A DNA stretch of 32,000 nt, taken from Pseudomonas aeruginosa (lineage in GTDB: Bacteria > Pseudomonadota > Gammaproteobacteria > Pseudomonadales > Pseudomonadaceae). The DNA lies in NCBI RefSeq assembly GCF_001457615.1, contig NZ_LN831024.1, forward strand, positions 6,284,980 to 6,316,979. The letters are read 5' to 3'. The notes below the pieces were generated by a model. The model had not been told where the DNA came from. It was given only the letters and a program-made list of their open reading frames with translations, and ran no database searches. The translations under genes and the position numbers were made by a program. This document shows positions 1 through 32,000 of the stretch, one piece after another (within the stretch, counting starts at the first letter, position 1; each line of letters starts with the position of its first letter).

Positions 1-228
1 TTCAACTGCCGGGTCGGCGATGGCTGCGTGGTCCGCCACAACGCGGTGGTCGACGGCTGCGACCTGCCAGCGGGTTTCTACGTACCGTCCACCGAGCGCA
101 TCGGTCCGCGCACCGACCTGGCGAGCATGCCGCGGGTCAGCGTTTCCGCCAGCGAGTTCTCGGAAGACGTGGCGCGCACCAACGTCGACCTGGTACGCGG
201 CTACAAGTCGCTGCAGAACGAGTTCTGA
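1..228 (+). CDS. 3' end of a hexapeptide-repeat (left-handed beta-helix, gamma-carbonic-anhydrase/acetyltransferase-like) protein; 5' end lies outside the window
   Basis: Frame 1 is open from base 1 to TGA at 226-228. The translation FNCRVGDGCVVRHNAVVDGCDLPAGFYVP... has an isoleucine-patch-like short periodicity. The stop lies 2 nt before the next ATG, which looks operon-like. Confidence 0.55.
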   Translation, partial: FNCRVGDGCVVRHNAVVDGCDLPAGFYVPSTERIGPRTDLASMPRVSVSASEFSEDVARTNVDLVRGYKSLQNEF

Positions 229-230
229 AC

Positions 231-1568
231 ATGCAAAGCCTGCTGATCCGCAATGCCCGGATGGTCAACGAGGGGCAGGTACGCGAAGGCGATCTGCTGG
301 TCCGCCACGGTCGCATCGAACGCATCGCCGGCTGCCTGGAAAACTGCGGCGCCAGCCGGGAGATCGATGCCGCCGGACGCTACCTGCTGCCGGGAATGAT
401 CGACGACCAGGTGCACTTCCGCGAGCCGGGTTATCCACAGAAGGGCTCGATCGCCAGCGAATCCCGCGCCGCCGTGGCGGGCGGCATCACCAGTTTCATG
501 GACATGCCCAATACCCGCCCGGCGACGCTGAGCCTCGAAGCGCTGGCGGAAAAGAAGCGCCTCGCCGCCGCCCATAGCGTGGCCAACTTCGGTTTCCACT
601 TCGGCGTCAGCCGCGACAACCTCGACACCGTGGCCGCCCTCGATCCACGCGAGGTCGCCGCGGTGAAGGTGTTCATGGGCGCCTCCACCGGCGACATGCT
701 GGTGGACGACCTGCCGACCCTGGAGCGCCTGTTCGCCAGCGTTCCGACCCTGCTGCTGAGCCATTGCGAAGACACGCCGCGGATCGAAGCCAACCTGGCG
801 CGCTGGCGACAACGCTTCGGTGAACGTATTCCGGCAGCCGCCCACCCGCGCATTCGCGACGCCGAGGCTTGCTACCGTTCCACCGCCCTGGCGGTGGAAC
901 TGGCGCAACGACATGGCACGCTGCTGCATGTCCTGCACTTATCCACAGCGCGTGAACTGGCCCTGTTCGAGGACAAGCCGCTGTGCCAGAAACGCATCAC
1001 CGCGGAAGTCTGCGTCCACCATCTGCTGTTCGACGACAGCGACTACGCCCGCCTCGGCCATCTGCTCAAGTGCAACCCGGCGATCAAGAGCCGCGAGGAC
1101 CGCGACGCCCTGCGCAGGGCGCTGGCCGGCAACCGCCTGGACGTGATCGGCACCGACCACGCGCCGCACGCCTGGGCCGAGAAGCAGCAGGCTTATCCAC
1201 AGGCGCCGGCCGGCCTGCCACTGGTCCAGCATGCGTTGCCGGCACTCCTGGAGCTGGTCCGCGAAGGCTGGCTGTCGCTTGCCACCCTGGTGGCGAAGAC
1301 CAGCCACCGGGTCGCCGAACTGTTCGCCATCGCCGATCGCGGTTTCCTCCGCGAAGGTTACTGGGCCGACCTGGTGCTGGTCAGCGAACTGGAGCACCCG
1401 GCGCTGGCCAGCGCCATGCCGCTGCTGTCGCGCTGCAACTGGACGCCGTTCCGCCACCGGGCATTCCACCATCGGATCGATACCACCATCGTCTCCGGGC
1501 AACTCGCCTGGCACGCGGGACGCCTGTCCGACGATTGCCAGGGACTGCCCCTGCGGTTTTCCCGCTGA
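231..1568 (+). CDS. pyrQ: Dihydroorotase / cyclic amidohydrolase family protein (second, pyrC2/pyrQ-type dihydroorotase)
   Basis: 445-aa GC3-rich ORF. It carries amidohydrolase signatures LLPGMIDDQVHFREPG, MDMPNTRP, VIGTDHAPH. Position and size match PA5541 as I recall it. Confidence 0.85.
   Translation: MQSLLIRNARMVNEGQVREGDLLVRHGRIERIAGCLENCGASREIDAAGRYLLPGMIDDQVHFREPGYPQKGSIASESRAAVAGGITSFMDMPNTRPATLSLEALAEKKRLAAAHSVANFGFHFGVSRDNLDTVAALDPREVAAVKVFMGASTGDMLVDDLPTLERLFASVPTLLLSHCEDTPRIEANLARWRQRFGERIPAAAHPRIRDAEACYRSTALAVELAQRHGTLLHVLHLSTARELALFEDKPLCQKRITAEVCVHHLLFDDSDYARLGHLLKCNPAIKSREDRDALRRALAGNRLDVIGTDHAPHAWAEKQQAYPQAPAGLPLVQHALPALLELVREGWLSLATLVAKTSHRVAELFAIADRGFLREGYWADLVLVSELEHPALASAMPLLSRCNWTPFRHRAFHHRIDTTIVSGQLAWHAGRLSDDCQGLPLRFSR
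431..439 (+). promoter_or_regulatory. Perfect DnaA box TTATCCACA
   Basis: Read directly from the sequence. Inside pyrQ as GGT TAT CCA CAG (G-Y-P-Q). Confidence 0.7.
939..947 (+). promoter_or_regulatory. Perfect DnaA box TTATCCACA
   Basis: Inside pyrQ as CAC TTA TCC ACA GCG (H-L-S-T-A). It uses the very rare TTA Leu codon. Confidence 0.7.
1193..1201 (+). promoter_or_regulatory. Perfect DnaA box TTATCCACA
   Basis: Inside pyrQ as GCT TAT CCA CAG (A-Y-P-Q). Confidence 0.7.
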
Positions 1569-1612: not shown

Positions 1613-2857
1613 CTAGCGCAGGGCTTTCACCGCCGCGCCAAGGAAGGCATAGGTCTCCTCCTCGCGATCGTCCATCTCCGGCTTCGGCCAGGCGCTCCAG
1701 ACCACCGCCACGATCTTCTCCTTGCGGTTGATGTAGAGGTACTGGCCGAAGATGCCCTGGGCTTCGAAGGCCCCGCCGTCATGCTCGGGCAGGGCCTTGG
1801 CGCCCACCGGGAAGGTCCACCACTGGTAGCCGTAGCCGAGCGCGTATTCGCCATCGTAGAGCTTGCCCGGGGCCAGGTGGGAAGTAGCCTCGACGCGACT
1901 GGCACGATCGACCCAACCTTCGGGGAGGATACGTTCGCCATCGATCACCCCGTCCTCGAGGACGAACTGGCCGAAGCGGCCATAGTCGCGCAGGGTCGCG
2001 CTCAAGCCGCTGCTGCCGATCTCTTGCCCGGCCGGCGATTCCAGTTGCCAGAAGCCGTCGCTCTCCATGCCCATTCGCGCCCAGATCCGCTCGGACAGGT
2101 AGTCGCTCACCGGAATGCGGGTCGCCGCGTGCAGCAGCTCGCTCTGCAGGTGCGACTCGCCGGTGCTGTAGGTGAAGTGGGTACCGCTCGGGTACTGCCG
2201 CGGCAGGCTCGCCAGCAGCCGCAGGATGCCACCGGGACGTTCGGCGAGCTGGGCGTCGAACATCTGCCGGCGGTCGGACTTCGGATCGCGATAGGTCTCG
2301 TTCCAGCGGACCCCGGAACTCATCTGCAGGACCTGCTCCACCGTCACCCCCTGGTAGGCGGAGCCGGCCAGGCTCGGCAGGTACTTGTCCACAGGCTGGT
2401 CGAGAGCCAGCAGGCCCTGCTGCACGGCGGCGCCCACCAGGGTCGAGGAGATCGACTTGACCACCGAGAACGAGGTCCAGCGCGTGCGTTCGTCGTTGCC
2501 CAGGCCGTAGCGCTCCAGGGCGACCTTGCCATCCTTGAGGACCAGCACCCCGCCAACGCGGTTGCGCCGCATGAAATCGTCGACGCCGTATTCCTCGCCG
2601 CCGATCCGGTAGCGCGGCGCGATGGCCACACCCGCCGGCAGCGGACGGACCTTGGTCCCCTTGTGGATAACCCGGGTCGGATAGACCTTGTCCATGTTCC
2701 GGTAGGTGTCCGGCTGGTATTCCGGGATCAGTTCATAGAGATCGGCGGCACGGCCGATCCGCGGGTTTTCCACAGCCGCGTCGGCGCCGGCCGAGCCGCT
2801 TGCCGAGACGAACAGTGCCAGCAGGGCCGGCCGGAAGACTGATATACAGCTACGCAT
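1613..2857 (-). CDS. Secreted serine hydrolase of the beta-lactamase/transpeptidase-like family (PA5542 / PIB-1-like)
   Basis: ATG at 2857 is preceded by AAGGA (minus strand ...ATAAGGAAAACGTCC ATG). It has a signal peptide MRSCISVFRPALLALFVSASGSAGA and an SxxK motif in FSVVKSISS. The 38 extra N-terminal codons in the ORF track were rejected because they lack an SD. Confidence 0.8.
   Translation of the reverse strand: MRSCISVFRPALLALFVSASGSAGADAAVENPRIGRAADLYELIPEYQPDTYRNMDKVYPTRVIHKGTKVRPLPAGVAIAPRYRIGGEEYGVDDFMRRNRVGGVLVLKDGKVALERYGLGNDERTRWTSFSVVKSISSTLVGAAVQQGLLALDQPVDKYLPSLAGSAYQGVTVEQVLQMSSGVRWNETYRDPKSDRRQMFDAQLAERPGGILRLLASLPRQYPSGTHFTYSTGESHLQSELLHAATRIPVSDYLSERIWARMGMESDGFWQLESPAGQEIGSSGLSATLRDYGRFGQFVLEDGVIDGERILPEGWVDRASRVEATSHLAPGKLYDGEYALGYGYQWWTFPVGAKALPEHDGGAFEAQGIFGQYLYINRKEKIVAVVWSAWPKPEMDDREEETYAFLGAAVKALR
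2662..2670 (-). promoter_or_regulatory. Perfect DnaA box (TGTGGATAA on + strand)
   Basis: Inside the beta-lactamase-family gene. The coding strand reads GTT ATC CAC AAG (V-I-H-K). Confidence 0.7.
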
Positions 2858-2928
2858 GGACGTTTTCCTTATGACCGGAAGCAGCTCCGGCTTCGTCGTT
2901 TTTATGGATGTGGACTGGCGTCTCAGGG

Positions 2929-2937
2929 TTATCCACA
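2929..2937 (+). promoter_or_regulatory. Perfect DnaA box TTATCCACA
   Basis: In the 86-bp spacer between the DUF1850 stop (2944) and the beta-lactamase-family start (2857). Confidence 0.7.
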
Positions 2938-2943
2938 GGACGT

Positions 2944-3342
2944 TCAGTCGCTCGGGTCCCGTATCGGACACGCCCAGAGTTCGACCGCCGGGCGCTCACG
3001 GTCCGGCGGACCGATCCAGCGCGCCAGCGCATCGCAGCGCCCCTGACGGCAGATCCGGTAGTCGCCGGCCTCCGGTGTGCGCCCCAGCCGCAACGGTTGC
3101 AACGGCGGCACCCCACGGTGGTAATGCCAGGCGCCGTCACGCAGCACGGCGCCCTCGGGAATCTCCATCCCCGCCCCGCTGCCCCGCACCCGGGCCTCTT
3201 CCAGCAGCAGGCCGCGCTCACTCAGGCGATAGTCTTCTTCCCAGAGCACCTTCTCGACCGTGTGTTGCCAGGCCAGGGTGAACGACTGCAGCGGCAGCGT
3301 CGCCCAGACGCTGCCGGCCATGCCCAGACACAGCGCGATCAC
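2944..3342 (-). CDS. DUF1850-type small protein associated with TAXI-TRAP transporters
   Basis: This is the C-terminal part of the 2944..5103 ORF frame. A GTG at 3342 overlaps the permease TGA (3339-3341) as GTGA; the alternative start is ATG 3321. The sequence ...LAWQHTVEKVLWEEDYRL...GSGAGMEIPEGAVLRDGAWHY... resembles DUF1850 proteins found next to TAXI permeases. Confidence 0.65.
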   Translation of the reverse strand: MIALCLGMAGSVWATLPLQSFTLAWQHTVEKVLWEEDYRLSERGLLLEEARVRGSGAGMEIPEGAVLRDGAWHYHRGVPPLQPLRLGRTPEAGDYRICRQGRCDALARWIGPPDRERPAVELWACPIRDPSD

Positions 3343-5363
3343 GCCACCGCCTCGCGCGCACGCTGGCGCCAGAGGTGCCAGCCGATCACCAGCGCGCCGA
3401 GGACGAAGCCCAGCTCGTCGCTGATCGGCAAGGCCAGGACCAGGCTGGCCCCGGCGGCGAACGCCACCAGGCGCTCCCACCAGGCCAGCGGCCCCTGCAG
3501 GTAGCCGATGGAAGCCATGCCCCACAGGCCGATGGCCAGCACCGCCTTGCAGGTGACATAGAGCGTCGCCCCCCAACCGCCTTCCTGCAGCATCAGCGCC
3601 GGGGAATACACCGCCATGAACGGCACCACGAAACCCGCCAGGGCGATGCGCACCGCCCAGAAGCTGATTTTCAATCCCCTTTCCTTGGCGATCGGCGCGG
3701 CCGCGAAACAGGCCAGCGCCACCGGAGGGGTGAGGTCGGCGAGGATGCCGAAGTAGAAGACGAACATGTGCGAGACGATCAGCGGCACCCCCAGTTCCAG
3801 CAGCGCCGGCGCGGCGATGGAGCTGGTGATGATGTAGTTGGGGATGGTCGGGATGCCCATTCCCAGGACCAGGCAGGTGACCATGGTCAGGACCAGCGAC
3901 AGCAGCAGGTTCTCCCGTCCCAGGTCGAGCACGTAGCTGGCGAAGGTGGTGGCGATGCCGGTCAGCGAAATCACCCCGATGATGACTCCCACCAGGGTGC
4001 AGGCGATGCCCACCGGGATCGCATGTCGCGCACCTTCGGCGAGGGCGCGGACGCAGATGCGCAGGGTTTCCCGGCCGCCACGGACGAACCAGCAGGCCAG
4101 GGCCAGGGCCGCGATCACGACGAAGATCACCCCGATGCCGAGGCGGAAGAACCCCGCGCAGAGCAGCCCCAGCGCCACCCAGAAGGCGATGCGCAGGCCG
4201 AGCGAGGACACCCGCAGGATGATCGCCGAACCGAGGATGACGATGGCGGTCAGCGCCAGGCCGATGGTTCCGGAGAACAGCGGCGTGCGCCCGGAGAACA
4301 GCAGCGCGATCAGCACCAGCAACGGAATCAGCAGGAACCAGCGCTCGCGGACGGCACCCCAGGCGCTCGGACACTGATCGCGCGGCAGGCCCTTTAGATC
4401 GGCCCGGCGGGCCTCGAGGTGGACCATCCAGTACACCGAGCCGAAATACAGCAGGGCCGGGATCAGCGCCGCCTTGGCGATCTCCACGTAGGGGACGTTG
4501 ATGGTCTCGGCCATAATGAACGCCACCGCCCCCATCACCGGCGGCATCAGTTGGCTGCCCATGCTCGCGGTCGCCTCGACGCCGCCGGCGAACGCCGGCT
4601 TGTAGCCGAAACGCTTCATCAGCGGGATGGTGAACTGTCCGGTGGTGACCACGTTGGCCACGCCGGAGCCGGTGATGGTGCCCATCAGCGCCGAGGAGAA
4701 TACCGAGACCTTGGCCGGCCCGCCGACCCGGTGACCGAACAGGCCCATGGCGAAATCGGTGAACAGGCGGATCATGCCGGCCTGCTCGAGGAAGGCGCCG
4801 AACAGGATGAACAGATAGATGTAGGTGGCCGATACGTAGGTCGGCGTGCCGTAGAGACCTTCGGTACCGAACGACAGCTGGTTGACGATCTGGTCGAAGC
4901 CGTAGCCGCGGTGGGCCAGGTCGCCCGGCAGGTGTTCGCCGAACAGGCCATAGGCAAGAAACAGCGCGCAGATGATCGGCAAGGCGATGCCCATCACCCG
5001 TCGCGCCGCCTCGAAGACCAGGACGATCAGCACCACGCCGACGACCATGTCGGCCTGGGTCAGCTCTCCGGAGCGCTGGATCAGGTCGCCCTCGAAAACC
5101 CACTGGTAGACCGCCGTGCCCAGGCCGGCCATGCCCAGCAACCAGGCCAGCGGCTGCCAGGGGCGACCTATGCCGAAGGCGGGATAGCTGATGTACACCA
5201 CCAGCAACAGCAGTCCGACGTGCATTGCCCGCAGGACCTGGGTGGAAATCAGGGGAAAGGCCGCGGTGACGACCTGGAACACGGAAAAGGCCAGGGCCAC
5301 GGCGAACAACGCGCGCGGCCAGTTTTCCGCCTCAAGATGCAGCCCGTTCTGATGATCGCTCAT
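3339..5363 (-). CDS. TRAP transporter fused permease (4TM/12TM DctQ-DctM fusion, TAXI type)
   Basis: Long, highly hydrophobic ORF. The start is set at ATG 5363 (MSDHQNGLHLE...), with GGGAG 7 nt upstream. It is adjacent to the TAXI binding-protein gene. Confidence 0.85.
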   Translation of the reverse strand: MSDHQNGLHLEAENWPRALFAVALAFSVFQVVTAAFPLISTQVLRAMHVGLLLLVVYISYPAFGIGRPWQPLAWLLGMAGLGTAVYQWVFEGDLIQRSGELTQADMVVGVVLIVLVFEAARRVMGIALPIICALFLAYGLFGEHLPGDLAHRGYGFDQIVNQLSFGTEGLYGTPTYVSATYIYLFILFGAFLEQAGMIRLFTDFAMGLFGHRVGGPAKVSVFSSALMGTITGSGVANVVTTGQFTIPLMKRFGYKPAFAGGVEATASMGSQLMPPVMGAVAFIMAETINVPYVEIAKAALIPALLYFGSVYWMVHLEARRADLKGLPRDQCPSAWGAVRERWFLLIPLLVLIALLFSGRTPLFSGTIGLALTAIVILGSAIILRVSSLGLRIAFWVALGLLCAGFFRLGIGVIFVVIAALALACWFVRGGRETLRICVRALAEGARHAIPVGIACTLVGVIIGVISLTGIATTFASYVLDLGRENLLLSLVLTMVTCLVLGMGIPTIPNYIITSSIAAPALLELGVPLIVSHMFVFYFGILADLTPPVALACFAAAPIAKERGLKISFWAVRIALAGFVVPFMAVYSPALMLQEGGWGATLYVTCKAVLAIGLWGMASIGYLQGPLAWWERLVAFAAGASLVLALPISDELGFVLGALVIGWHLWRQRAREAVA

Positions 5364-13440: not shown

Positions 13441-14805
13441 TTACTTCTTGATTTTTTCCGGGCGCTTCCAGTTTTCCAGGTTCTTCTGCCGGGCGCGGCC
13501 GAAGGCCAGGTTCTTCGCCGGAACCTCATGGGTGATGGTGGAGCCGGCCGCGGTCGTCGCGCCATCGCCGATCTTCAGCGGCGCCACCAGCGAGTTGTTC
13601 GAGCCGATGAACACATCGTCGCCCAGCTCGGTGCGGAACTTGTTCGCGCCATCGTAGTTGCAGGTGATGGTGCCGGCGCCGATGTTGCAGTTGGCGCCCA
13701 GCTCGGCATCGCCCAGGTAGCTCAGGTGGCCGGCCTTGCTGCCCTCGCCCAGGCGGGCATTCTTCAGTTCGACGAAGTTGCCGACATGGGCCCGAGCGCC
13801 GAGCACGCTGCCCGGACGCAGGCGGGCAAACGGACCGGCATCGCTACCCTCGCCCAGCTCCGCGCCTTCCAGGTGGCTGTTGGCCTTGATCACCGCGCCA
13901 CGCCGCAGGACGCTGTCGCGAATCACGCAGTTCGGTCCGATGCGCACGTCGTCCTCGATCACCACGCGGCCTTCCAGCACCACATTGACGTCGATCAGCA
14001 CGTCGCGGCCGACCGAGATTTCGCCACGGACATCCAGGCGCTGCGGATCGAGCAGGGTCACGCCCTGGCGCATCAGCTCCTCTGCGCGCATGCGCTGGTA
14101 GTGACGCTCCAGCTGGGCCTGTTGCATGCGGTCATTGACGCCCTGCACTTCCATCGCGTCCAGCGGTTGGGCGCTGGCCACCACCAGGCCGTCGCCGACC
14201 GCCATGGCGATCACGTCGGTCAGGTAGTACTCGCCCTGGGCGTTGTCGTTGGACAGGCGGCCGAGCCAGTCGGCAAGGCGCTTGCCCGGCACCGCGAGGA
14301 TGCCGGTGTTGATCTCGCCGATCTGGCGCTGCGCCGGGGTCGCGTCCTTGTGCTCGACGATGGCCTGCACCGCGCCCTGGTCGTCACGGACGATGCGGCC
14401 GTAGCCGGTGGGGTCGAGCATGTCGACGGTGAGCAACGACAACTGGTCCGGGGTGACTTGCGCCAGCAGGCGCTGCAAGGTGTCCAGCTGGATCAGCGGC
14501 ACGTCGCCGTAGAGGATCAGCACCTGGTCTGCACTGAGGAACGGCAGGGCCTGGGCCACCGCATGGCCCGTACCGAGCTGTTCGGCCTGGAGCACGAAAT
14601 TCAGGTCGTCGGCGGCCATCCGCTCACGCACCAGATCCGCGCCGTGGCCGATCACCACGTGGATCCGTTCCGGCTGCAACTGGCGCGCGCAGTCGATGAC
14701 GTGGCCGAGCATCGGCTTGCCGGCAATGGGATGGAGGACCTTGGGCAGGGCCGAACGCATGCGGGTGCCCTGGCCGGCGGCGAGAATCACGATTTCAAGG
14801 GACAT
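13441..14805 (-). CDS. glmU: Bifunctional UDP-N-acetylglucosamine pyrophosphorylase / glucosamine-1-phosphate N-acetyltransferase
   Basis: 454 aa with the N-terminus [18 protein letters not shown] (LAAGxGTRM motif). The C-terminal part is a hexapeptide-repeat domain. Confidence 0.97.
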
Positions 14806-23775: not shown

Positions 23776-24420
23776 TCATGCTGTGCGCCGCAGTATCAGC
23801 AGATGCCGCTGACCTTGGCAACCGGGTACCGCCAGCGCGTGCTCGGCTTCGACCCGGAAATCCTCCGGGAGTGCCGCCAGCTCTTCGTTCGGATGCACGC
23901 CCTTCATCGCCAGCCAGCGGGTTTCCTGGCCACCGAGGTGGCGGGTCCAGTTGGCGAAGTCCTCCAGGCTGCTGAAAGCGCGGGAAACGATGCCATCGAA
24001 GGGGCTCTCGGGACGGAAGGCTTCCACCCGGCTGTGCACGACTTCGAGGTTGGCCAGCTTCAGCTCGAGCTTCACCTGGGTCAGGAAGCGGGTCTTCTTG
24101 CCGTTGCTGTCGAGCAGGGTCAGGCGCTTTTCCGGGAACAGGATGGCCAGCGGCACGCCGGGCATGCCGCCGCCGCTGCCGACATCCAGCCAGTTATCCC
24201 CAGCCTCGGCATAAGGCACGATGCTCAGGCTGTCGAGCAGGTGGCGCGAAACCATCTCGTCCGGGTCGCGTACGGCGGTCAGGTTGTAGGCCTTGTTCCA
24301 TTTGATCAGCAGGGCCAGGTAGGCCAGCAGCTGGCGTTGCTTGTCGGCGTCGAGGGCGACGCCTAGCTCGTCAGCACCGCGCGCGAGTTCGTCGGCGTGG
24401 TGTTGGGTTACCGCAGACAT
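23776..24420 (-). CDS. rsmG: 16S rRNA (guanine527-N7)-methyltransferase
   Basis: GidB-family sequence with [14 protein letters not shown] 24420 overlaps the mnmG TGA (24420-24422) by 1 nt, which suggests translational coupling. Confidence 0.95.
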
Positions 24421-26312
24421 CAAGCGCTCTGCTCCAGTTGGCGGCCAGAGGCACGCTTCTTCAGGTGGATCAACAACAGCGAAATCGCAGCCGGCGTGAC
24501 GCCGGGGATCCGCGAAGCCTGTCCGAGGGTTTCCGGACGGGCCTGGTTCAGCTTGTTCTGGATTTCCTTCGACAGGCCGGAAATCCCCAGGTAATCGATA
24601 TCCACAGGCAGGCGGGTATCTTCGCTGGCGCGCAGACGGGAGATTTCCTCCTGCTGGCGGTCGATGTAGCCGGCGTACTTGGTGCGAATCTCCACCTGCT
24701 CGGCCACCTGGGGGTTATCCACAGCGTTGCCGGTGATCTCCACCAGGCCGGCGTAATCGATCTCGGGGCGGCTCAGCAGGTTGAGCAGATTGTATTCATG
24801 GGTCAGCGGCGTACCGAAGCGCTCGGCGATGGCGTCGCCCTGCGGGGTATTCGGCCGCACCCAGGTGCTCTTCAGCCGCTGTTCCTCGCGTTCGATACCT
24901 TCGCGCTTGGCTTCGAAGGCAGCCCAGCGCCGATCGTCGACAAGGCCCAGCTCGCGTCCCTTCTCGGTGAGACGCAGGTCGGCGTTGTCCTCGCGGAGGA
25001 TCAGGCGGTATTCCGCCCGCGAGGTGAACATGCGGTACGGCTCCTGGGTGCCGAGCGTGATCAGGTCGTCCACCAGCACGCCGATGTAGGCCTCGTCGCG
25101 GCGCGGGCACCAGCTGTCCTTGCCTTGCGAACGCAACGCAGCATTGGCGCCGGCCAGCAGGCCCTGGGCGCCAGCTTCCTCGTAGCCGGTGGTGCCGTTG
25201 ATCTGGCCGGCGAAGAACAGGCCGCCGATGACCTTGGTCTCCAGGCTGTACCTGAGATCGCGGGGATCGAAGAAGTCGTACTCGATCGCATAGCCCGGCC
25301 GCACGATGTGGGCGTTTTCCATGCCACGGATGGAACGCACGATCTGCAGTTGCACGTCGAACGGCAGGGACGTGGAAATGCCGTTGGGATACAGCTCGTG
25401 GGTCGTCAGGCCTTCCGGCTCGAGGAAGACCTGGTGGCTTTCCTTGTCGGCGAAGCGATGGATCTTGTCTTCGATCGAAGGGCAGTAGCGCGGGCCGATG
25501 CCTTCGATCACACCGGAATACATCGGCGAACGATCGAGGTTGGCGGCGATGATCTCGTGGGTCCGGGCGTTGGTATGGGTGATCCAGCAACTGACCTGCT
25601 CGGGATGCTGTTCCTTCGAACCGAGGAAGGACATCACCGGGATCGGCGTGTCGCCCGGCTGCTCGGTCATCACCGAGAAGTCCACGCTGCGCCCGTCGAT
25701 CCGCGGCGGCGTACCGGTCTTCAGCCGGCCGACCCGCAGCGGCAATTCACGCAGACGCCGCGCCAGTGCGATGGACGGCGGGTCGCCGGCGCGTCCGCCT
25801 GAGTAGTTCTCCAGGCCGATGTGGATAAGTCCGCCGAGGAAGGTGCCGGTAGTCAGGACCACGTTGTCGGCATGGAAGCGCAGTCCCATCTGGGTCACTA
25901 CGCCGCGGACCTGATCCTGCTCGACGATCAGGTCGTCGCAGGCCTGCTGGAATATCCACAGGTTCGGCTGGTTTTCCAGTGTATGGCGGATAGCGGCCTT
26001 ATAGAGCACGCGATCGGCTTGTGCACGAGTGGCGCGCACTGCCGGCCCCTTGCGGCTGTTAAGGATGCGGAACTGGATACCGCCCTTGTCGGTGGCTTCG
26101 GCCATGGCGCCGCCAAGGGCGTCGATTTCCTTGACCAGATGGCTCTTGCCGATGCCGCCGATGGCGGGGTTGCAGCTCATCTGCCCCAGGGTTTCCACAT
26201 TGTGGGTCAACAGCAGGGTTTTCACACCCATGCGCGCAGCCGCGAGTGCGGCTTCGGTGCCTGCATGGCCACCGCCGATCACGATTACGTCAAAACGGGT
26301 AGGGAAATCCAC
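24420..26312 (-). CDS. mnmG: tRNA uridine 5-carboxymethylaminomethyl modification enzyme MnmG (GidA)
   Basis: FAD motif [15 protein letters not shown] prefer the GTG at 26312 (GAGG 6 nt upstream, giving 630 aa) over the GTG at 26315. Confidence 0.96.
24715..24723 (+). promoter_or_regulatory. Perfect DnaA box TTATCCACA
   Basis: Inside mnmG. The coding strand reads GCT GTG GAT AAC (A-V-D-N). Confidence 0.65.
25820..25828 (-). promoter_or_regulatory. Perfect DnaA box (TGTGGATAA on + strand)
   Basis: Inside mnmG. The coding strand reads CTT ATC CAC ATC (L-I-H-I). Confidence 0.65.
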
Positions 26313-26439
26313 CACGCACCTCGGCCTGTTCAGAAGCAGGAATTCAGGAAAGCCGGACAGTATAAGGATTTAGCGAACCTGAATGAAGACTCCTGGACAA
26401 AAAATAGCCAATCCAGATCGAGGGAGCAAAACGGCTCGG

Positions 26440-26706
26440 CGGGCTTACAAAAAATAAAAGGAAAGGAATGTTTATATCTTTTTAGAACTTGTGTTTATTG
26501 CTTAGCAGCGGCTTTTCTGTTGATAAGTACGTCGAGCCCAGTAAAGACATAGCCTGTAGCGAATGATAAGGCTGTCCCAAACCCTATCTGGGCCCTGTTG
26601 ATAAGCGTTTTTTAGCTGTGGATGGAATGGCTCGTTATCAACATGTGGAGTTATGCACAGAGCTTCGGCGGGTTTATCTACCCTCCTGTCCCTGGGGTTT
26701 TCCACA
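26440..26706. other. oriC-like module upstream of mnmG: AT-rich tract followed by a cluster of DnaA-box variants
   Basis: AT-rich tract 26440-26510. 1-mismatch boxes: TGTTGATAA 26518-26526 and 26596-26604, TTATCAACA 26635-26643, TTATGCACA 26651-26659, TTTTCCACA 26698-26706. 2-mismatch boxes: TGTGGATGG 26617-26625 and TGTGGAGTT 26644-26652. Confidence 0.6.
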
Positions 26707-26784
26707 GGTTTCAGGCGAGCGTATCCGGGCCGCGGCAGGACCGCAGCCAGGTAGGAGAAGGAGATGGAAAGGCGTGGGAAAGGC

Positions 26785-27009
26785 TCAGTCGTTGCCGCTT
26801 TCCAGCGTATCGATGGATGACGACAGGCGCTCGAAGCGGCGCTTGGCGGAGACCTGGAAATCCCGCTCGGAGCCCTCGTTAGCGGGTTTGCGCAGCAGTA
26901 GCCGAGCACTGAGCCCGCTAGAGCGGTCGTAACTGCCGAACCAGTCGATCATCTGTCCGACCTGGCATTCGCCGCCGAGCCACACCGCCAGGTTGGCTAC
27001 GATCTCCAT
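26785..27009 (-). CDS. Hypothetical small protein (74 aa), downstream member of a two-ORF cassette
   Basis: MEIVANLAVWLGGECQVGQMIDWFGSYDRS...IDTLESGND. By my hand count GC3 is 60/74 (about 81%), which is host-like. It has no SD of its own, and its ATG lies 13 nt upstream of the stop of the preceding ORF. I recognise no family. Confidence 0.5.
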   Translation of the reverse strand: MEIVANLAVWLGGECQVGQMIDWFGSYDRSSGLSARLLLRKPANEGSERDFQVSAKRRFERLSSSIDTLESGND

Positions 27010-27305
27010 GCTGTAGTGTCCGAGTGCTCGCCGTGGGACGCCTTGGGAGCCGAAGGCGAGGGCCCCGCCTGGCCGGTATCGACGGAGTCCAGGGTCTGCA
27101 ACAGCTCTTTTCGCAGAATCTCTTCCAGGCTTGTGGATAAACCGCTTACCGGGTTGACTTGCGTGCACGGAACGTCCCGGCGCGTGGCGATAGCGCCAGG
27201 CGAGACAACGGGATAGATACGCCGTTCGAGAGGGGCGAGCAGATAGAGATTGACCACAGCGCAGCGCCTTCGCGGACGCCGGATCGGAGCGCGGTGCCTG
27301 TGCAT
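26997..27305 (-). CDS. Hypothetical protein (102 aa from ATG 27305), upstream member of a two-ORF cassette
   Basis: GGGAGAGG lies 3 nt (GGAG core 6 nt) upstream of ATG 27305. Over the last 86 codons my hand count gives GC1/GC2/GC3 of about 64/52/70%, the coding-type ordering but below host GC3. The basic N-terminus is MHRHRAPIRRPRRR, followed by ...LEEILRKELLQTLDSVD.... I recognise no family. Confidence 0.4.
   Translation of the reverse strand: MHRHRAPIRRPRRRCAVVNLYLLAPLERRIYPVVSPGAIATRRDVPCTQVNPVSGLSTSLEEILRKELLQTLDSVDTGQAGPSPSAPKASHGEHSDTTAWRS
27132..27140 (-). promoter_or_regulatory. Perfect DnaA box (TGTGGATAA on + strand)
   Basis: Inside the 102-aa hypothetical ORF as GGT TTA TCC ACA AGC (G-L-S-T-S). 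Confidence 0.7.
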
Positions 27306-27472
27306 AAACCTCTCCCAGGTGGATATCCATCCCATGCAGACCGACATCGGCGCAGATGGTTTTCTCGGGGACGAAGCGGCGCGCCGGCAATCCATGCCTG
27401 CGTGGTTGAGTGCCGGCGGCAAGGGGCACAGTGAAAGGAAAGTACGCAGAACCGGAGCGAACCTTGCCCTGG

Positions 27473-27481
27473 TTATCCACA
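27473..27481 (+). promoter_or_regulatory. Perfect DnaA box TTATCCACA
   Basis: 22 nt beyond the mnmE stop codon, next to the small hairpin CTCGGC-GTGG-GCCGAG (27484-27499). Confidence 0.7.
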
Positions 27482-27503
27482 ACTCGGCGTGGGCCGAGCC
27501 CCA

Positions 27504-28871
27504 TTACTTGCCGATGCAGAAACTCGAGAAGATGCGACCCAGCAGGTCGTCGGGGGTGAATGCGCCGGTGATTTCGCCCAGGTGCTGCTGGGCCTGGCGC
27601 AGATCCTCGGCCAGCAGTTCGCCGGCGCCATTGTGGATAAGTTGGCTGTGGCCATGCTCCAGCGCCTGCCCTGCCAGGCGTAGCGCTTCCAAGTGGCGCC
27701 GGCGGGCGCTGAAACCGCTTTCCGCGGTCTGTTCGAAGCCCATGCAGGCCTTCAGGTGTTCGCGCAGCAGCTCCAGGCCGGCGCCGGTGCGCGCCGAGAG
27801 GGTGATGGTGACGTGGCCGTCCGCGCTTTCCTCGAGGCCAATGGACTCTGTGGACAAATCCGCCTTGTTGCGGATCAGGGTGACCTTGCCCGGTTCCGGT
27901 CGCTGGTCGAGAAACTCCGGCCATAGGGAAAACGGGTCCGCTGCTTCCGGGGCGGTGGCGTCCACCACCAGCAGCACGCGATCGGCTTCGCCGATGGCTT
28001 TCAGCGCACGTTCCACGCCGATCTTTTCCACATGGTCCTCGGTATCCCGCAGGCCTGCGGTGTCCACCACATGCAGGGGCATGCCATCGATGTGGATATG
28101 TTCGCGCAATACATCGCGGGTGGTGCCGGCTATGTCCGTGACGATGGCCGCCTCGCGACCGGCCAGGGCATTCAGCAGGCTGGACTTGCCGGCATTCGGT
28201 CGTCCGGCGATGACCACGGTCATGCCGTCGCGCAGCAGGGCGCCTTGGGAAGCTTCGCGCTGCACTGTGGATAATTCTGTGCGTACTTTTTCCAGAAGCC
28301 CCAGTACATGGCCATCGGCGAGGAAGTCGATTTCTTCCTCGGGGAAGTCGATGGCGGCTTCGACATAGATGCGCAGGGAAATCAGTTGCTCGGTCAATGC
28401 ATGTACCCGGCGTGAGAATTCGCCCTGCAGGGAACGCAATGCATTGCGCGCGGCCTGCTCCGAGCTGGCCTCGATCAGATCGGCGATGGCTTCGGCCTGG
28501 GCCAGGTCGAGCTTGTCGTTGAGGAACGCGCGCTCGCTGAACTCGCCCGGTCGCGCCTGGCGGGCGCCCAGTTCCAGACAACGCTGCACCAGCAGGTCGA
28601 GTACCACGGGGCCGCCGTGCCCCTGCAGTTCGAGTACGTCTTCGCCGGTGAACGAGTTCGGGCCGGGGAAATACAGTGACAGGCCTTCGTCGATCACCTG
28701 CCCACCGGCATCGAGGAACGGTCCGTAATGCGCATGCCGGGCTTTCAGCTGGCGTCCGCTCACGGCCACGGCCATCTGTCCGGCGAGAGGTCCGGAGACG
28801 CGGACGATTCCCACGCCGCCGCGGCCCTGGGCGGTAGCGATCGCGACGATGGTTTCGGTGGCGGCTTGCAT
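27504..28871 (-). CDS. mnmE: tRNA modification GTPase MnmE (TrmE/ThdF)
   Basis: The start is set at ATG 28871 ([27 protein letters not shown]), with GGAG upstream. It has the G1 motif GRPNAGKSS and the C-terminal CIGK. 455 aa. Confidence 0.96.
27632..27640 (-). promoter_or_regulatory. Perfect DnaA box (TGTGGATAA on + strand)
   Basis: Inside mnmE. The coding strand reads CTT ATC CAC AAT (L-I-H-N). Confidence 0.65.
28266..28274 (-). promoter_or_regulatory. Perfect DnaA box (TGTGGATAA on + strand)
   Basis: Inside mnmE. The coding strand reads GAA TTA TCC ACA GTG (E-L-S-T-V), again with the rare TTA codon. Confidence 0.65.
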
Positions 28872-28941: not shown

Positions 28942-30678
28942 TCAGGCGGTCTTCGCGGCTGCTTCGATCTTGCGGGTAATGTACCACTGCTGTGCGATCG
29001 ACAGGCAGTTGTTGACTACCCAGTACAGCACCAGACCGGCTGGGAACCAGAGGAAGAAGAAGGTGAAGATGATCGGCATCAGTTTCATCACCTTGGCCTG
29101 CATCGGGTCCGGCGGGGTCGGGTTGAGCATCTGCTGGATCAGCATGGTGCCGCCCATGACGATCGGCAGGATGAAGAACGGATCCTTCACCGACAGGTCG
29201 GTGATCCAGCCGAGCCACGGCGCCTGGCGCATTTCCACGCTTTCCAGGAGTACCCAGTAGAGGGAGAGGAAGACCGGCATCTGGACCAGGATCGGCAGGC
29301 AGCCGCCCAGCGGATTGATCTTCTCCTTCTTGTACAGCTCCATCATCGCCTGGGACATCTTCTGCCGATCGTCGCCGTGCTGTTCCTTGATCGCCTGCAT
29401 CTTCGGCGACACCGCGCGCATGCGCGCCATCGAACGGTAGCTGGCGGCGGACAACGGGAAGAAGGCCAGCTTGATCAGGACGGTCAGGGCGATGATCGAC
29501 CAGCCCCAGTTGCCGATCAGGCTGTGGATATGTTGCAGCAGCCAGAAGATCGGCTGGGCGATGAACCAAAGGAAACCGTAGTCGACGGTCAGTTCCAGGC
29601 CCGGGGAGAGTTCCTTCAGGTGCTTCTGGAGTTTCGGGCCGGCATACAGGGTCAGGTCGGTTTCCACCTTGCTACCCGCCGGAACGCTCAGGGTCGGGCC
29701 GGTGAAACCGACGATGTAGTTGCCCTGGCCGTCCTTGCGGGTCATGACCTGGTGCTGCTCGCCCTTGGTCGGAACCCAGGCGGTCACGAAGTAGTGTTGC
29801 AGCCAGGCGACCCAGCCACCCTGCACGGACTCCTTGAACTGTTCCTTGTCCATGTCCTTGGTGGAGATCTTCTTGTACGGCGAATCCGGGGTCCAGACCG
29901 CGGCGCCGAGGTAGGTGGACACCCCGGTGGCGGTGGTCGAGGACGGGTCGGCGCTGCCGTCGCGCTTGAGCTGGGCGAACAGGTTGCCGCTCCAGGTCTT
30001 GCCGCTCTGGTTGTCGATCAGGTAGCTGACGCCGACCTGATAGGCGTTTTCATTGATGCACTCGATCTTCTTCTGGGCCTTTTCCTTGTCCGAGCAATCG
30101 GCTTTCAGGCCACGGTGGAAGGTGAAGCGCTTGATGTAGTTGACACCGTCGTGGCTGAAGCTCAGGTCCACGACCAGTTCGTTCTGGCCGTCGGCCAACT
30201 GGTAGCTGCTCTGCGCACTGTGGAACAGCGGGCGGCCGGCGCTGCTGGCGTCCGGGCCGTCGGCACCGGTGAGGCCGCTCTGCGCCAGGTAGGTACGTTC
30301 GCGACCGTTGTCGAACAGCGGGAACGGCACGTCCGGACGGTCCAGGCGGCGCGGATACTGCAACAGGCCGAGCTGGACGATATCGCCGCCACGGGGATCG
30401 ATGGCCAGGTCGAGGACGTCGGTCTTCACCTGGATCAGCTTGTCGCTGACCGCAACCGGCTTGTCGGCGGCTTCGCTGCCGGCCGCGCTGCTCTGGGCAG
30501 TGGGAACGTCACTGCTGGTGCCCGAGGCGGACGGAGTGTCCGGCAGGCCTTGCGTGGTGTTCATCGAAGCGCTGGCGGCGGGCAGCTCAGGCTGACCGTA
30601 ATCCTTGTTCCACTGGAGAACCAGCAGGTAGGACACGACTGCAAGGGCGACGATGAGAATCGAGCGTTGAATGTCCAT
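28942..30678 (-). CDS. yidC: Membrane protein insertase YidC
   Basis: 578 aa with an N-terminal TM, a large periplasmic domain and the conserved C-terminal 5-TM core (...[15 protein letters not shown]...). Confidence 0.97.
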
Positions 30679-30680
30679 GG

Positions 30681-30926
30681 TTACTCGGCCATCGAGAAAG
30701 GGCGGTGCTTGAAGGAAACTGACAGTAGCAGATCGCGGCTACGGGATTGCCAGTGATGGAGCCGAGTGGAGGAAACCGCACTCGGGCGACCATTGCGTCG
30801 CGGGCCATGCTGCGCGATAGCCTCGTACGCTAGGGAAGTACAACTTGGCTGGGAACGACGGTGCCGGGTCATCGAAGGGGGGATGACACTACAGGGATCG
30901 GGATGCGCGGGCATCGACCTATGCAT
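30681..30926 (-). CDS. yidD: 81-aa ORF in the yidD position (rnpA-yidC spacer); a partial YidD signature only, so possibly degenerate
   Basis: It fills the slot where yidD sits in most proteobacteria. It retains P-S-C...A-Y-E-A-I-x-x-H-G. It lacks the first Cys of C-R-F-x-P-S/T-C-S, reads R-L-H-H-W where R-C-H-P-W is expected, and has no GG-x-D-P-V-P. GC3 is only about 64% (52/81, hand count). Confidence 0.35.
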
Positions 30927-31326
30927 GAGTACCGTCGGCCACGCCAGGGGCGTCAGCAGGGCTTTCCGTGCGAGGTCGATTGCGCAACAGGCGTTTCCAG
31001 AGCTTGCCGAACTGCTGGTGCAGCTCCGGATTTTCCAGTTCGCCCAGGCCTTTGCGCGCGATCACCACGATATCCCAGCCAGCCAGGGTTTCCTGGTTAT
31101 GGCGGAACGATTCGCGGATCAGGCGTTTGAGGCGATTGCGCTGGACGGCGAGCTTGACGTTCTTCTTGCCGATCACCAGGCCCAGGCGGGGGTGATCGAG
31201 ACCGTTCTCGCGCGCCAGCAGCAGGACGTGCTTGCCGGGGACCTTGCCGGTCGGAGAGTCGAAGACTGCGCTGAATTGCCGGGCTGTCAGTAGACGCTTG
31301 TCCCGGTCGAAGTCCCGACTCACCAC
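30919..31326 (-). CDS. rnpA: Ribonuclease P protein component
   Basis: 135 aa with a GTG start. It carries the RNR motif region [19 protein letters not shown] and lies downstream of rpmH. Confidence 0.95.
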
Positions 31327-31340
31327 CCGTACCGGATAAA

Positions 31341-31475
31341 TCAGACGGTCAGACGCTTACGGCCTTTGGCGCGACGACGCGACAGAACCTGACGGCCGTT
31401 CTTGGTGGCCATACGGGCGCGGAAACCGTGGACGCGAGCGCGCTTGAGGGTGCTGGGTTGGAAAGTACGTTTCAT
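31341..31475 (-). CDS. rpmH: 50S ribosomal protein L34
   Basis: My hand translation of the minus strand gives [44 protein letters not shown] (44 aa). It falls below the ORF-track length cutoff. Confidence 0.97.
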
Positions 31476-31534
31476 GATTCGGTACCTGGGTTGACGACTT
31501 GAGGTCGCAGTGACCCCGTTTAAAGAGACCGGCG

Positions 31535-31563
31535 ATTCTAGTGAAATCGAACGGGCAGGTCAA
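31535..31563 (-). promoter_or_regulatory. Sigma70-type promoter of rpmH-rnpA
   Basis: The minus strand reads TTGACC (31563-31558), a 17-nt spacer, then TAGAAT (31540-31535), about 60 nt upstream of the rpmH ATG. Confidence 0.6.
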
Positions 31564-31774
31564 TTTCCAACCAGCGATGACGTAATAGATAGATACAAGG
31601 AAGTCATTTTTCTTTTAAAGGATAGAAACGGTTAATGCTCTTGGGACGGCGCTTTTCTGTGCATAACTCGATGAAGCCCAGCAATTGCGTGTTTCTCCGG
31701 CAGGCAAAAGGTTGTCGAGAACCGGTGTCGAGGCTGTTTCCTTCCTGAGCGAAGCCTGGGGATGAACGAGATGG

Positions 31775-31783
31775 TTATCCACA
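31775..31783 (+). promoter_or_regulatory. Perfect DnaA box TTATCCACA (oriC)
   Basis: Read directly. It is followed 6 nt later by the 1-mismatch box TTTTCCACA (31790-31798). Confidence 0.85.
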
Positions 31784-31836
31784 GCGGTTTTTTCCACACG
31801 GCTGTGCGCAGGGATGTACCCCCTTCAAAGCAAGGG

Positions 31837-31845
31837 TTATCCACA
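31837..31845 (+). promoter_or_regulatory. Perfect DnaA box TTATCCACA (oriC)
   Basis: Read directly from the sequence. Confidence 0.85.
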
Positions 31846-31922
31846 AAGTCCAGGACGACCGTCCGTCGGCCTGCCTGCTTTTATTAAGGTCTTGATTTGC
31901 TTGGGGCCTCAGCGCATCGGCA

Positions 31923-31931
31923 TGTGGATAA
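31923..31931 (-). promoter_or_regulatory. Perfect DnaA box (TGTGGATAA on + strand) (oriC)
   Basis: Read directly from the sequence. Confidence 0.85.
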
Positions 31932-32000
31932 GTCCGGCCCGTCCGGCTACAATAGGCGCTTATTTCGTTGTGCCGCCTTTCCAATCTTTGGGGGATATCC

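Follow-up and report, generated by a model that had tools for sequence, protein, structure and literature searches.

The mnmG-linked oriC2 of Pseudomonas aeruginosa as a probable whole-origin relative of the dnaA-linked oriC1

Two autonomously replicating sequences have been described from the chromosome of Pseudomonas aeruginosa, one linked to dnaA (oriC1) and one located upstream of gidA/mnmG (pae301, oriC2) (Yee & Smith 1990, as cited in bioRxiv 10.1101/2025.08.05.668638 and PMC13438810). As relayed by these citing papers, P. aeruginosa oriC2 supports the replication of plasmids and, in vitro, the formation of pre-priming complexes, both at lower efficiency than oriC1, and loads helicase in vitro; oriCI is required and by itself suffices to replicate the chromosome, and oriCII is dispensable (Yee & Smith 1990; Jiang 2006). 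Here we analyze a stretch of 32,000 nucleotides of the P. aeruginosa chromosome (NCBI RefSeq assembly GCF_001457615.1, contig NZ_LN831024.1, positions 6,284,980 to 6,316,979 of the forward strand; hereafter the window) and compare the region directly upstream of mnmG with the dnaA-linked origin of the same stretch.

Dual origins were reported in 88 of 91 Pseudomonadaceae and 138 of 163 Halomonadaceae genomes (Weigel 2025; bioRxiv 10.1101/2025.08.05.668638). In the R1-anchored alignment of that study the left part of the origin (the leftward gene, the unwinding element, the DnaA-trio, R1, and the IHF site) was almost identical in both origins, and the origin pair was concluded to have been inherited from an ancestor. 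In P. aeruginosa, DnaA binds the oriCII boxes in electrophoretic mobility shift assays and activates the p1 promoter of gidAB-parAB (mnmG-rsmG-parAB), and deletion of the oriCII boxes leads to lower p1 output and lower ParB levels (Wawrzyniak et al. 2026, Sci Rep, PMC13438810). Box 10 of that study lies 205 bp upstream of gidA, and the -35 element of p1 lies 130 bp from the nearest box. The mnmG-side element as a second Pseudomonas origin is already known and published. What is added here is modest and quantitative, namely that the likeness of the two origins in the Pseudomonadaceae spans the whole origin and lies mostly outside the nominal DnaA boxes.

Identity and parts of oriC2

The region 26445-26725 of the window is very probably oriC2 (oriCII, pae301), the second DnaA-dependent chromosomal origin of the Pseudomonadaceae directly upstream of mnmG/gidA, and a full-length homologue of the dnaA-linked oriC1 (31585-31860), with the resemblance stemming from an old whole-origin duplication that preceded the radiation of the Pseudomonadaceae. 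For a sequence-only reading of this DNA, the element next to mnmG was a module without a name, apart from the 'true oriC'; the literature identifies it as the published oriC2/oriCII. The canonical origin neighbourhood of a Pseudomonas chromosome makes up the window's right third, and two regions stand out in it, one upstream of mnmG (26316-26784) and one upstream of rpmH (31476-32000), both at about 49-52% GC against a 64% GC background. The parts of the mnmG-side region are as follows.

26448..26725, plus strand: full extent of oriC2 by nhmmer origin profiles with the window's clade left out (oriC2 profile, 26448-26717; oriC1 profile, 26449-26725)
26445..26512, no strand: AT-rich DNA unwinding element of oriC2; no 40-mer in the 32-kb window is less stable than the one starting at 26445 (dG -41.6); GC 0.34-0.36
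26518..26526, minus strand: R1-type DnaA box, TGTTGATAA on the plus strand, 1 mismatch; anchor of the R1-aligned stacks
26535..26541, no strand: AGCCCAG; its A..CC core (R1+17, +20, +21) is conserved in both origin families
26596-26604, minus strand: left-array reverse box, TGTTGATAA, R1+78
26617-26625, minus strand: left-array reverse box, TGTGGATGG, R1+99, 2 mismatches
26635, plus strand: forward box, TTATCAACA, R1+117
26651, plus strand: forward box, TTATGCACA, R1+133
26674, plus strand: forward box, TTATCTACC, R1+156, 2 mismatches
26698, plus strand: R4-like forward box, TTTTCCACA, R1+180; the array ends at 26706
26359..26387, minus strand: candidate mnmG p1 promoter, with a putative -35 TTCATT (26387-26382) and -10 TATACT (26364-26359)
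24420..26315, minus strand: mnmG (gidA), Pfam GIDA, 584 bits; GTG start at 26315; transcribed leftward, away from oriC2

This arrangement agrees in several points with the description of origins given by Weigel (2025). The AT-rich unwinding element contains the least stable 40-mer (26445-26484, GC 0.34), with the AT-rich run extending to about 26503 and the low-stability zone to about 26512; a reverse R1-type box (TGTGNAWAA) follows about two helical turns to the right of it (TGTTGATAA at 26518, 1 mismatch); the left-flanking gene (mnmG, minus strand) is transcribed away from the unwinding element; and the box array is reverse (+78, +99) and then forward (+117, +133, +156, +180). 13-mer-like direct repeats in the unwinding elements amounted only to weak two-copy families. 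The site is also that of P. aeruginosa oriC2/oriCII (pae301), directly upstream of mnmG/gidA on its mnmE side and about 5 kb from the dnaA-linked origin. The described oriCII has five DnaA boxes upstream of gidA, the nearest of which is about 205 bp from the start codon; in the window R1 is 203 bp from the mnmG start, and p1 (here a candidate) lies between box and gene in both. The window differs from the described P. aeruginosa oriC2 in an additional 0.7 kb (26785-27503), holding a 74-aa open reading frame (ORF), that separates oriC2 from mnmE. Its R1 is TGTTGATAA in place of the usual TGTGGATA(G/A).

A strict sigma-70 scan of 26250-26850 called no promoter. We nonetheless regard 26359..26387 as a candidate p1 because of its conservation and its position, which matches that of P. 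aeruginosa p1: when the regions upstream of mnmG from 42 Pseudomonadaceae are aligned with MAFFT, CCCTATACT and TTCtTT prove conserved, and the conserved TATACT is 44-49 bp upstream of the mnmG start, between R1 and the gene.

The corresponding parts on the dnaA side are listed below.

31585..31650, no strand: DNA unwinding element of oriC1; the window's second least stable 40-mer starts at 31585
31658..31666, minus strand: R1 DnaA box of oriC1, TGTGCATAA, which fits TGTGNAWAA
31757, minus strand: reverse box, R1+99, 2 mismatches
31775, plus strand: box, TTATCCACA, R1+117
31790, plus strand: box, TTTTCCACA, R1+132
31837, plus strand: R4-like box, TTATCCACA, R1+179 (array 31757..31845)
31923..31953, plus strand: a reverse perfect DnaA box (31923-31931) and a candidate dnaA promoter (TGGATA, 17-nt spacer, TACAAT), the box overlapping the promoter -35
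31535..31563, minus strand: rpmH promoter (TTGACC, 17-nt spacer, TAGAAT), which fires leftward, away from oriC1

Only oriC1 has the part at 31923..31953; nothing in oriC2 corresponds to it. A DnaA box over the -35 of a candidate dnaA promoter is the usual layout for dnaA autoregulation.

Likeness of the two origins within and among genomes

The sequence-only reading had aligned 26483-26541 with 31623-31681 and had reported that elements common to the two kept a constant offset of 5140 bp. A recount of the ungapped comparison gives the same 35 of 59 identities, a value reached by 2 of 500 dinucleotide-preserving shuffles (both strands searched), and TAGAA, the 10-mer GCTTTTCTGT, and AGCCCAG all occur in both copies at that offset, with the motifs upstream of them aligning through indels of 1-6 bp (offsets 5134-5139). 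The DnaA boxes that the 10-mer runs into, TGTTGATAA and TGTGCATAA, are each 1 mismatch from TGTGGATAA, as had been stated, with the correction that they carry 2 differences between them. The 10-mer was dropped as evidence by itself, as an exact match of at least 10 occurred in 176 of the 500 shuffles.

Local alignment against the same shuffles takes the likeness far past these 59 bp. The score of a strict Smith-Waterman alignment (2/-3) was reached by 27/500 shuffles and is not significant. Lenient scoring (1/-1/-3/-1) gave 21 versus 11.6 ± 1.3 in shuffles, which none of the 500 reached, and yielded a 212-bp alignment of 26511-26722 with 31651-31862 that has the offset 5140 at both ends; only lenient scoring or profiles reveal this long alignment. 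Within it, five pairs of DnaA boxes have the same position and orientation (26518/31658, 26617/31757, 26635/31775, 26651/31790, and 26698/31837), at an offset of 5140 up to the R1+117 box and 5139 beyond. Duplex stability, as an independent check, agrees: the least stable 40-mer of the 32 kb begins at 26445 and the next least stable at 31585, a distance of exactly 5140 bp. Overall identity between oriC1 and oriC2 in the window is only about 45%. The plan common to both begins with a leftward gene and the promoter of that gene, followed by an AT-rich unwinding element. R1, in reverse orientation, lies 73 bp rightward of where the least stable 40-mer begins. Next come a spacer with a conserved C at R1+30, which is the place of the IHF site in gammaproteobacterial origins, low-affinity boxes in reverse orientation up to R1+99, and then boxes in forward orientation at +117, +132/133, and +179/180.

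For comparison with other genomes, one scan with MnmE retrieved 80 loci, ranging from Pseudomonas to Enterobacterales, in each of which rpmH and mnmG were located and both upstream regions extracted; the closest retrieved MnmE sequences were at most 86% identical (P. jinjuensis and Pseudomonas sp. NY15181). R1-anchored ungapped stacks were built from 35 oriC1 and 41 oriC2 sequences. Nearly all Pseudomonadaceae oriC1 sequences have forward boxes at +117, +132, +179, and sometimes +192, and a reverse box at +265; nearly all oriC2 sequences combine forward boxes at +117, +133, and +179/180 with a reverse box at +99, and this reverse box recurs in many oriC1 sequences as well. The geometry R1/+117/+179 is found in 35/36 oriC1 and 41/41 oriC2 sequences. 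Smith-Waterman comparison of oriC1 with oriC2 over 35 Pseudomonadaceae genomes gave a median z of 21 and a minimum of 2.8, the window standing at 8.3. The relation is present in essentially all Pseudomonadaceae sampled.

Columns conserved at 80% or more number 87 in oriC1 and 100 in oriC2; 55 are conserved in both, with the same base in 54. Compared in register, the two origin types have an identity of 0.49, versus 0.22-0.32 in shifted registers; with the box columns excluded, the values are 0.448 versus 0.24-0.32, and all 24 jointly conserved non-box columns hold the same base. Profiles built with nhmmer without the window's own clade recover each origin from the other: the oriC1 profile matches the window's oriC2 with 95.6 bits (E=2.4e-29, 26449-26725) and the oriC2 profile matches its oriC1 with 74.5 bits (E=6e-23), compared to 110.8 bits (E=5e-34, 26448-26717) for the oriC2 profile of other Pseudomonadaceae against the window's oriC2. 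Lone DnaA boxes elsewhere score at most 7 bits with the origin profiles, and when the boxes were kept and the remainder was shuffled in blocks of 6-24 nt, the cross-profile scores fell to about 8-16 bits. The likeness therefore exceeds that of 9-mers at equal spacing, and most of the cross-origin signal is outside the nominal 9-bp DnaA boxes.

The motifs that had first drawn attention fared unevenly in sister genomes. R1, the TC just 5' of it, and the A..CC core are kept, whereas TAGAA (2/35 oriC1, 1/41 oriC2), the GCTTTTC part of the 10-mer (1/35 and 4/41), and the full AGCCCAG (3/35 and 2/41) are rare; these three markers are lineage-specific or due to chance. Conserved in both origins are the TC 5' of R1, R1, A..CC at R1+17..21, a T at +37, and the downstream boxes. 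An IHF site of the form WATCARNNNNTTR, with its C 21 bp after R1, would place this C at R1+30, where it is found in both window copies, in 24/35 oriC1, and in 31/41 oriC2 sequences.

Two further features of the spacer were observed. The A..CC motif, 8 bp after R1 in both origin types (26535-26539 and 31675-31679 in the window), is outside the DnaA boxes. A motif at R1+34..+42 (26552-26560 and 31692-31700) is clade-specific and the same in both origins of one genome, reading (A/G)TGTACAG in the fluorescens, syringae, and putida clades and being CTTTCAGC-like in the aeruginosa-like, mendocina-like, and stutzeri clades. Four columns have clade-specific states that are identical in both origins, against 0-1 in shifted controls, and such parallel states hint that a common trans-acting factor may act on both.

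Outside of the Pseudomonadaceae, the profiles detected rpmH-side homologues in Modicisalibacter, Endozoicomonas, Oceanospirillum, and Marinobacter (L044, L046, L050, L054, L047, and L051 among the retrieved loci) and mnmG-side homologues in Nitrincolaceae, Oceanospirillum, and, weakly, Vibrio. A single metagenome-assembled genome of Oceanospirillum (L058) has homologues on both the rpmH and mnmG sides (4946-5147 and 14549-14761). These matches suggest that the dual-origin layout may reach beyond the two families described in the literature. The rpmH side of Enterobacterales gave no profile match, and same-genome Smith-Waterman comparison of the rpmH side with the mnmG side was not significant (z at most 2.7) in Marinobacterium, Amphritea, and Neptuniibacter (Nitrincolaceae), Oceanospirillum, Marinomonas, and Vibrionaceae.

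Descent, constraint, and the role of oriC2

An old duplication of the whole origin is the most economical reading of these comparisons. The proposal that the two elements are paralogous is partly borne out, since they are related far beyond chance and beyond common 9-bp boxes and form separate lineages, as an old duplication predicts: the nearest neighbour is of the same origin type for 73 of 76 origin sequences and of the other type for 3. The unit that had been proposed as duplicated, the unwinding element plus first box, proved too small; it is the whole origin instead, with the unwinding element at one end and the R4-like box (R1+180) at the other.

Chance resemblance of two AT-rich intergenic regions with DnaA boxes could account for the 10-mer and the strict alignment score, both of which are within the shuffle range, but it is refuted by the lenient score that no shuffle attained, by cross-profile E values of 1e-22 to 1e-29, and by reproduction in 35 genomes, and we give it practically no weight. 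Improbable, though of greater weight than chance, is convergence, in which unrelated regions became alike as the DnaA/IHF orisomes of the lineage need the same boxes and spacing beside an AT-rich stretch. Many of the jointly conserved columns are indeed DnaA boxes or their flanks, the E. coli and Vibrio origins have the same 180-bp R1-R4 spacing with little other sequence similarity, and the four clade-specific states identical in both origins suggest a common trans-acting constraint. However, the cross-profile score of 95.6 bits collapses to about 15 bits once the non-box sequence is block-shuffled, the non-box columns conserved in both origins agree without exception, the unwinding elements themselves align in two loci (L033 and L020), and only 2/84 resolved columns differ consistently between the origin types.

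A recent duplication or ongoing gene conversion that keeps the copies alike within a genome (concerted evolution) would accord with the parallel clade-specific motifs at R1+34..42, with the very long alignments of high identity seen in Thiopseudomonas (L033) and L020, and with a same-genome cross identity of 0.490 versus 0.472 for different genomes, which 0 of 10000 permutations reach. Taken by itself, the same-genome excess would be a weak sign that the copies co-evolve, yet at the level of clade consensus sequences it is gone (0.502 within clades versus 0.508 between clades, with 86/120 permutations doing as well), and because it vanishes there it is not robust evidence of concerted evolution. 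Given also the grouping by origin type, the low identity of the copies in the window, and the exclusion of a late duplication in Halomonadaceae (Weigel 2025; bioRxiv 10.1101/2025.08.05.668638), we consider concerted evolution very improbable.

Several points nevertheless weigh against oriC2 being an old, full-length, and functional duplicate of oriC1. Between clades, origins of one type have an identity of 0.49-0.67, barely more than origins of different types (about 0.50), and the sequences are therefore saturated and unable to date the duplication; strong common constraint could mimic part of the signal, and these data do not formally separate common descent from such constraint. The IHF consensus is poorly matched in both window copies, with agreement only at C +30 and, in oriC2, T +37. 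The R1 of oriC2 is mismatched at a stringent position (TTATCAACA), a variant common to three oriC2 boxes. E. coli oriC is detected by neither nhmmer profile, and origin activity of oriC2 in this strain would follow by analogy with P. aeruginosa experiments.

More tentatively, the duplication could be placed much deeper. The dnaA-linked and mnmG-linked origins might be paralogues of a single whole-origin duplication deep in the Gammaproteobacteria, the classic 'translocated' oriC of E. coli and Vibrio being the mnmG-side paralogue that persisted once the dnaA-side copy was lost, and both Pseudomonadaceae copies having been kept as working orisomes. We consider this less likely than not. The deep placement is proposed because homology spans the entire origin and reaches Oceanospirillum, Endozoicomonas, Marinobacter, Nitrincolaceae, and, weakly, Vibrio, and the retention of both copies as working orisomes because origin-specific fixed differences are so few.

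If oriC2 works as an origin in this strain, DnaA-ATP oligomers would fill R1 and its flanking arrays, the DNA would bend in the R1-adjacent spacer, and the unwinding element at 26445-26512 would then melt, with leftward transcription from the adjacent mnmG promoter adding negative supercoiling that may aid opening. Its role would mainly be that of a DnaA-responsive enhancer of mnmG-rsmG-parAB, together with that of a secondary origin. Since the duplication, both copies have probably been held to the same orisome geometry. A weaker, secondary origin role fits, because oriC2 in the window is without any perfect TTATCCACA box and oriC1 has three.

It is unlikely, though less so than the alternatives of convergence or gene conversion, that oriC2 is a regulatory relic that is no longer an origin and has been retained solely to enhance the mnmG-rsmG-parAB promoter through its DnaA boxes, to titrate DnaA, or to do both. 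The decrease in ParB upon box deletion, the activation of p1 by DnaA, and the dispensability of oriCII in P. aeruginosa (PMC13438810) are in line with such a relic, as are the lack of a perfect box in the window's oriC2 and the loading of the whole origin-proximal region with DnaA boxes. An enhancer, however, would need neither a placed unwinding element nor the R1/+99/+117/+180 geometry, yet these are kept in 41/41 loci and mirror oriC1; that the whole family has retained the full geometry speaks against a mere promoter relic. So do the replication of plasmids and the pre-priming complexes formed in vitro that bioRxiv 10.1101/2025.08.05.668638 relays for P. aeruginosa oriC2. Collectively, the likeness of the two origins is equally strong within and between clades, with no robust sign of concerted evolution, and the pattern argues for upkeep of oriC2 under full origin-type constraint and not as a mere promoter enhancer. 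This bears on the purpose of a 'dispensable' second origin.

Surroundings of the origins and comparison with other systems

The minus-strand genes of the neighbourhood (parB, parA, rsmG, mnmG, mnmE, yidC, rnpA, and rpmH) were all confirmed by Pfam, and the rpmH-dnaA spacer contains the end of the window. Rfam and tRNA scans over the whole window gave no matches. The features around the two origins are the following.

26788..27009, minus strand: 74-aa accessory ORF outside the origin, between oriC2 and mnmE; GC3 0.80 in frame
27504-28871, minus strand: mnmE, Pfam MnmE_helical/TrmE_N
28942-30678, minus strand: yidC, Pfam YidC_periplas/60KD_IMP
30681-30926, minus strand: 81-aa ORF in the block between the two origins
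30919-31326, minus strand: rnpA, Pfam Ribonuclease_P
31341-31475, minus strand: rpmH, Pfam Ribosomal_L34

The 74-aa ORF (26788-27009) had no Pfam match and a tblastn homologue in only one locus (L012). An ORF at 26997-27482 was rejected as a gene, with no Pfam match and no homologue in the 80 loci (L001-L080), and the GC-rich stretch of about 490 bp after the 74-aa ORF is without a credible gene, though it has boxes at 27132 (minus), 27299 (minus), and 27473 (plus). The mnmE-mnmG interval is 384-691 bp or 1.2-6.3 kb in other genomes; as its size varies between genomes, the site beside oriC2 is an insertion hot spot.

DnaA boxes are also found outside the two origins, the whole window containing 14 perfect boxes versus 0.08 expected. 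A box at codon 163 of mnmG (25820-25828; CTT ATC CAC ATC = LIHI) is perfect in 33/40 Pseudomonadaceae loci and is partly explained by the conserved peptide, and a box at codon 200 of mnmE (28266-28274; TTA TCC ACA = LST), which includes a rare Leu codon, is perfect in 16/39 loci. A dense cluster at 431-2937 is inside genes for an amidohydrolase (231-1568, plus strand) and a beta-lactamase-family hydrolase (1613-2971, minus strand), with five perfect TTATCCACA boxes at 431, 939, 1193, 2662, and 2929 and 1-mismatch boxes at 1573, 1588, 2385, and 2766. Some of these boxes are made of codons that are rare in a 64% GC genome (TTA TCC ACA; TGG ATA ACC). In one locus (L084, 90% protein identity) 6/9 of the cluster boxes, perfect and 1-mismatch taken together, are at homologous positions and the cluster extends past the window's left end; homologues of at most 71% identity have none of the cluster boxes. 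Located about 29 kb from oriC1, the cluster at 431-2937 is a candidate for DnaA titration in the manner of datA.

Among described systems, the predicted dual origins of Weigel (2025) in Pseudomonadaceae and Halomonadaceae occupy the same positions as those of the window (<rpmH.oriC1 and <mnmG.oriC2). In Halomonadaceae the two origins are 20-30 kb apart and their right parts are highly diverging (Weigel 2025), whereas in the Pseudomonadaceae sampled here the right part is colinear as well (+99, +117, +133, +180).

The oriC of E. coli and Vibrio, between mnmG and mioC, has the same neighbour in the same orientation, with mnmG transcribed away from it and R1 167 bp from the mnmG start. The plan of E. 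coli oriC is likewise a reverse R1 at 0, R5M at +55, and R4 at +180, with the unwinding element to the left of R1; the R4 spacing is 180/179 bp in the window and 180 bp in E. coli, and the middle forward box is at +117 in the window and at +106 (R2) in E. coli. Sequence similarity is weak (z up to about 4), and an attempt to determine which Pseudomonas origin is nearer to E. coli oriC gave no discrimination (40/83 versus 45/98 conserved columns). E. coli and Vibrio oriC, which belong to the dam/SeqA clade, are rich in GATC and have 13-mers of the form GATCTnTTnTTTT; the window's origin regions are not of this GATC-rich, GATCTnTTnTTTT-bearing kind, with one GATC in 26316-26784 and none in 31476-32000.

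Bipartite origins, as in Bacillus subtilis (incAB/incC) and Helicobacter pylori (oriC1/oriC2), likewise have two DnaA-box clusters a few kb apart near dnaA. Those clusters flank dnaA, have one unwinding element, and together form a single origin. The window was not assigned to this class, as each of its clusters includes an unwinding element and what they flank is the rpmH-rnpA-yidC-mnmE block, not dnaA. The datA locus of E. coli and the DnaA-box clusters of B. subtilis are also near-origin boxes that bind DnaA and influence expression or DnaA availability. Clusters of the datA type are without a positioned unwinding element or R1-R4 geometry, whereas oriC2 has both.

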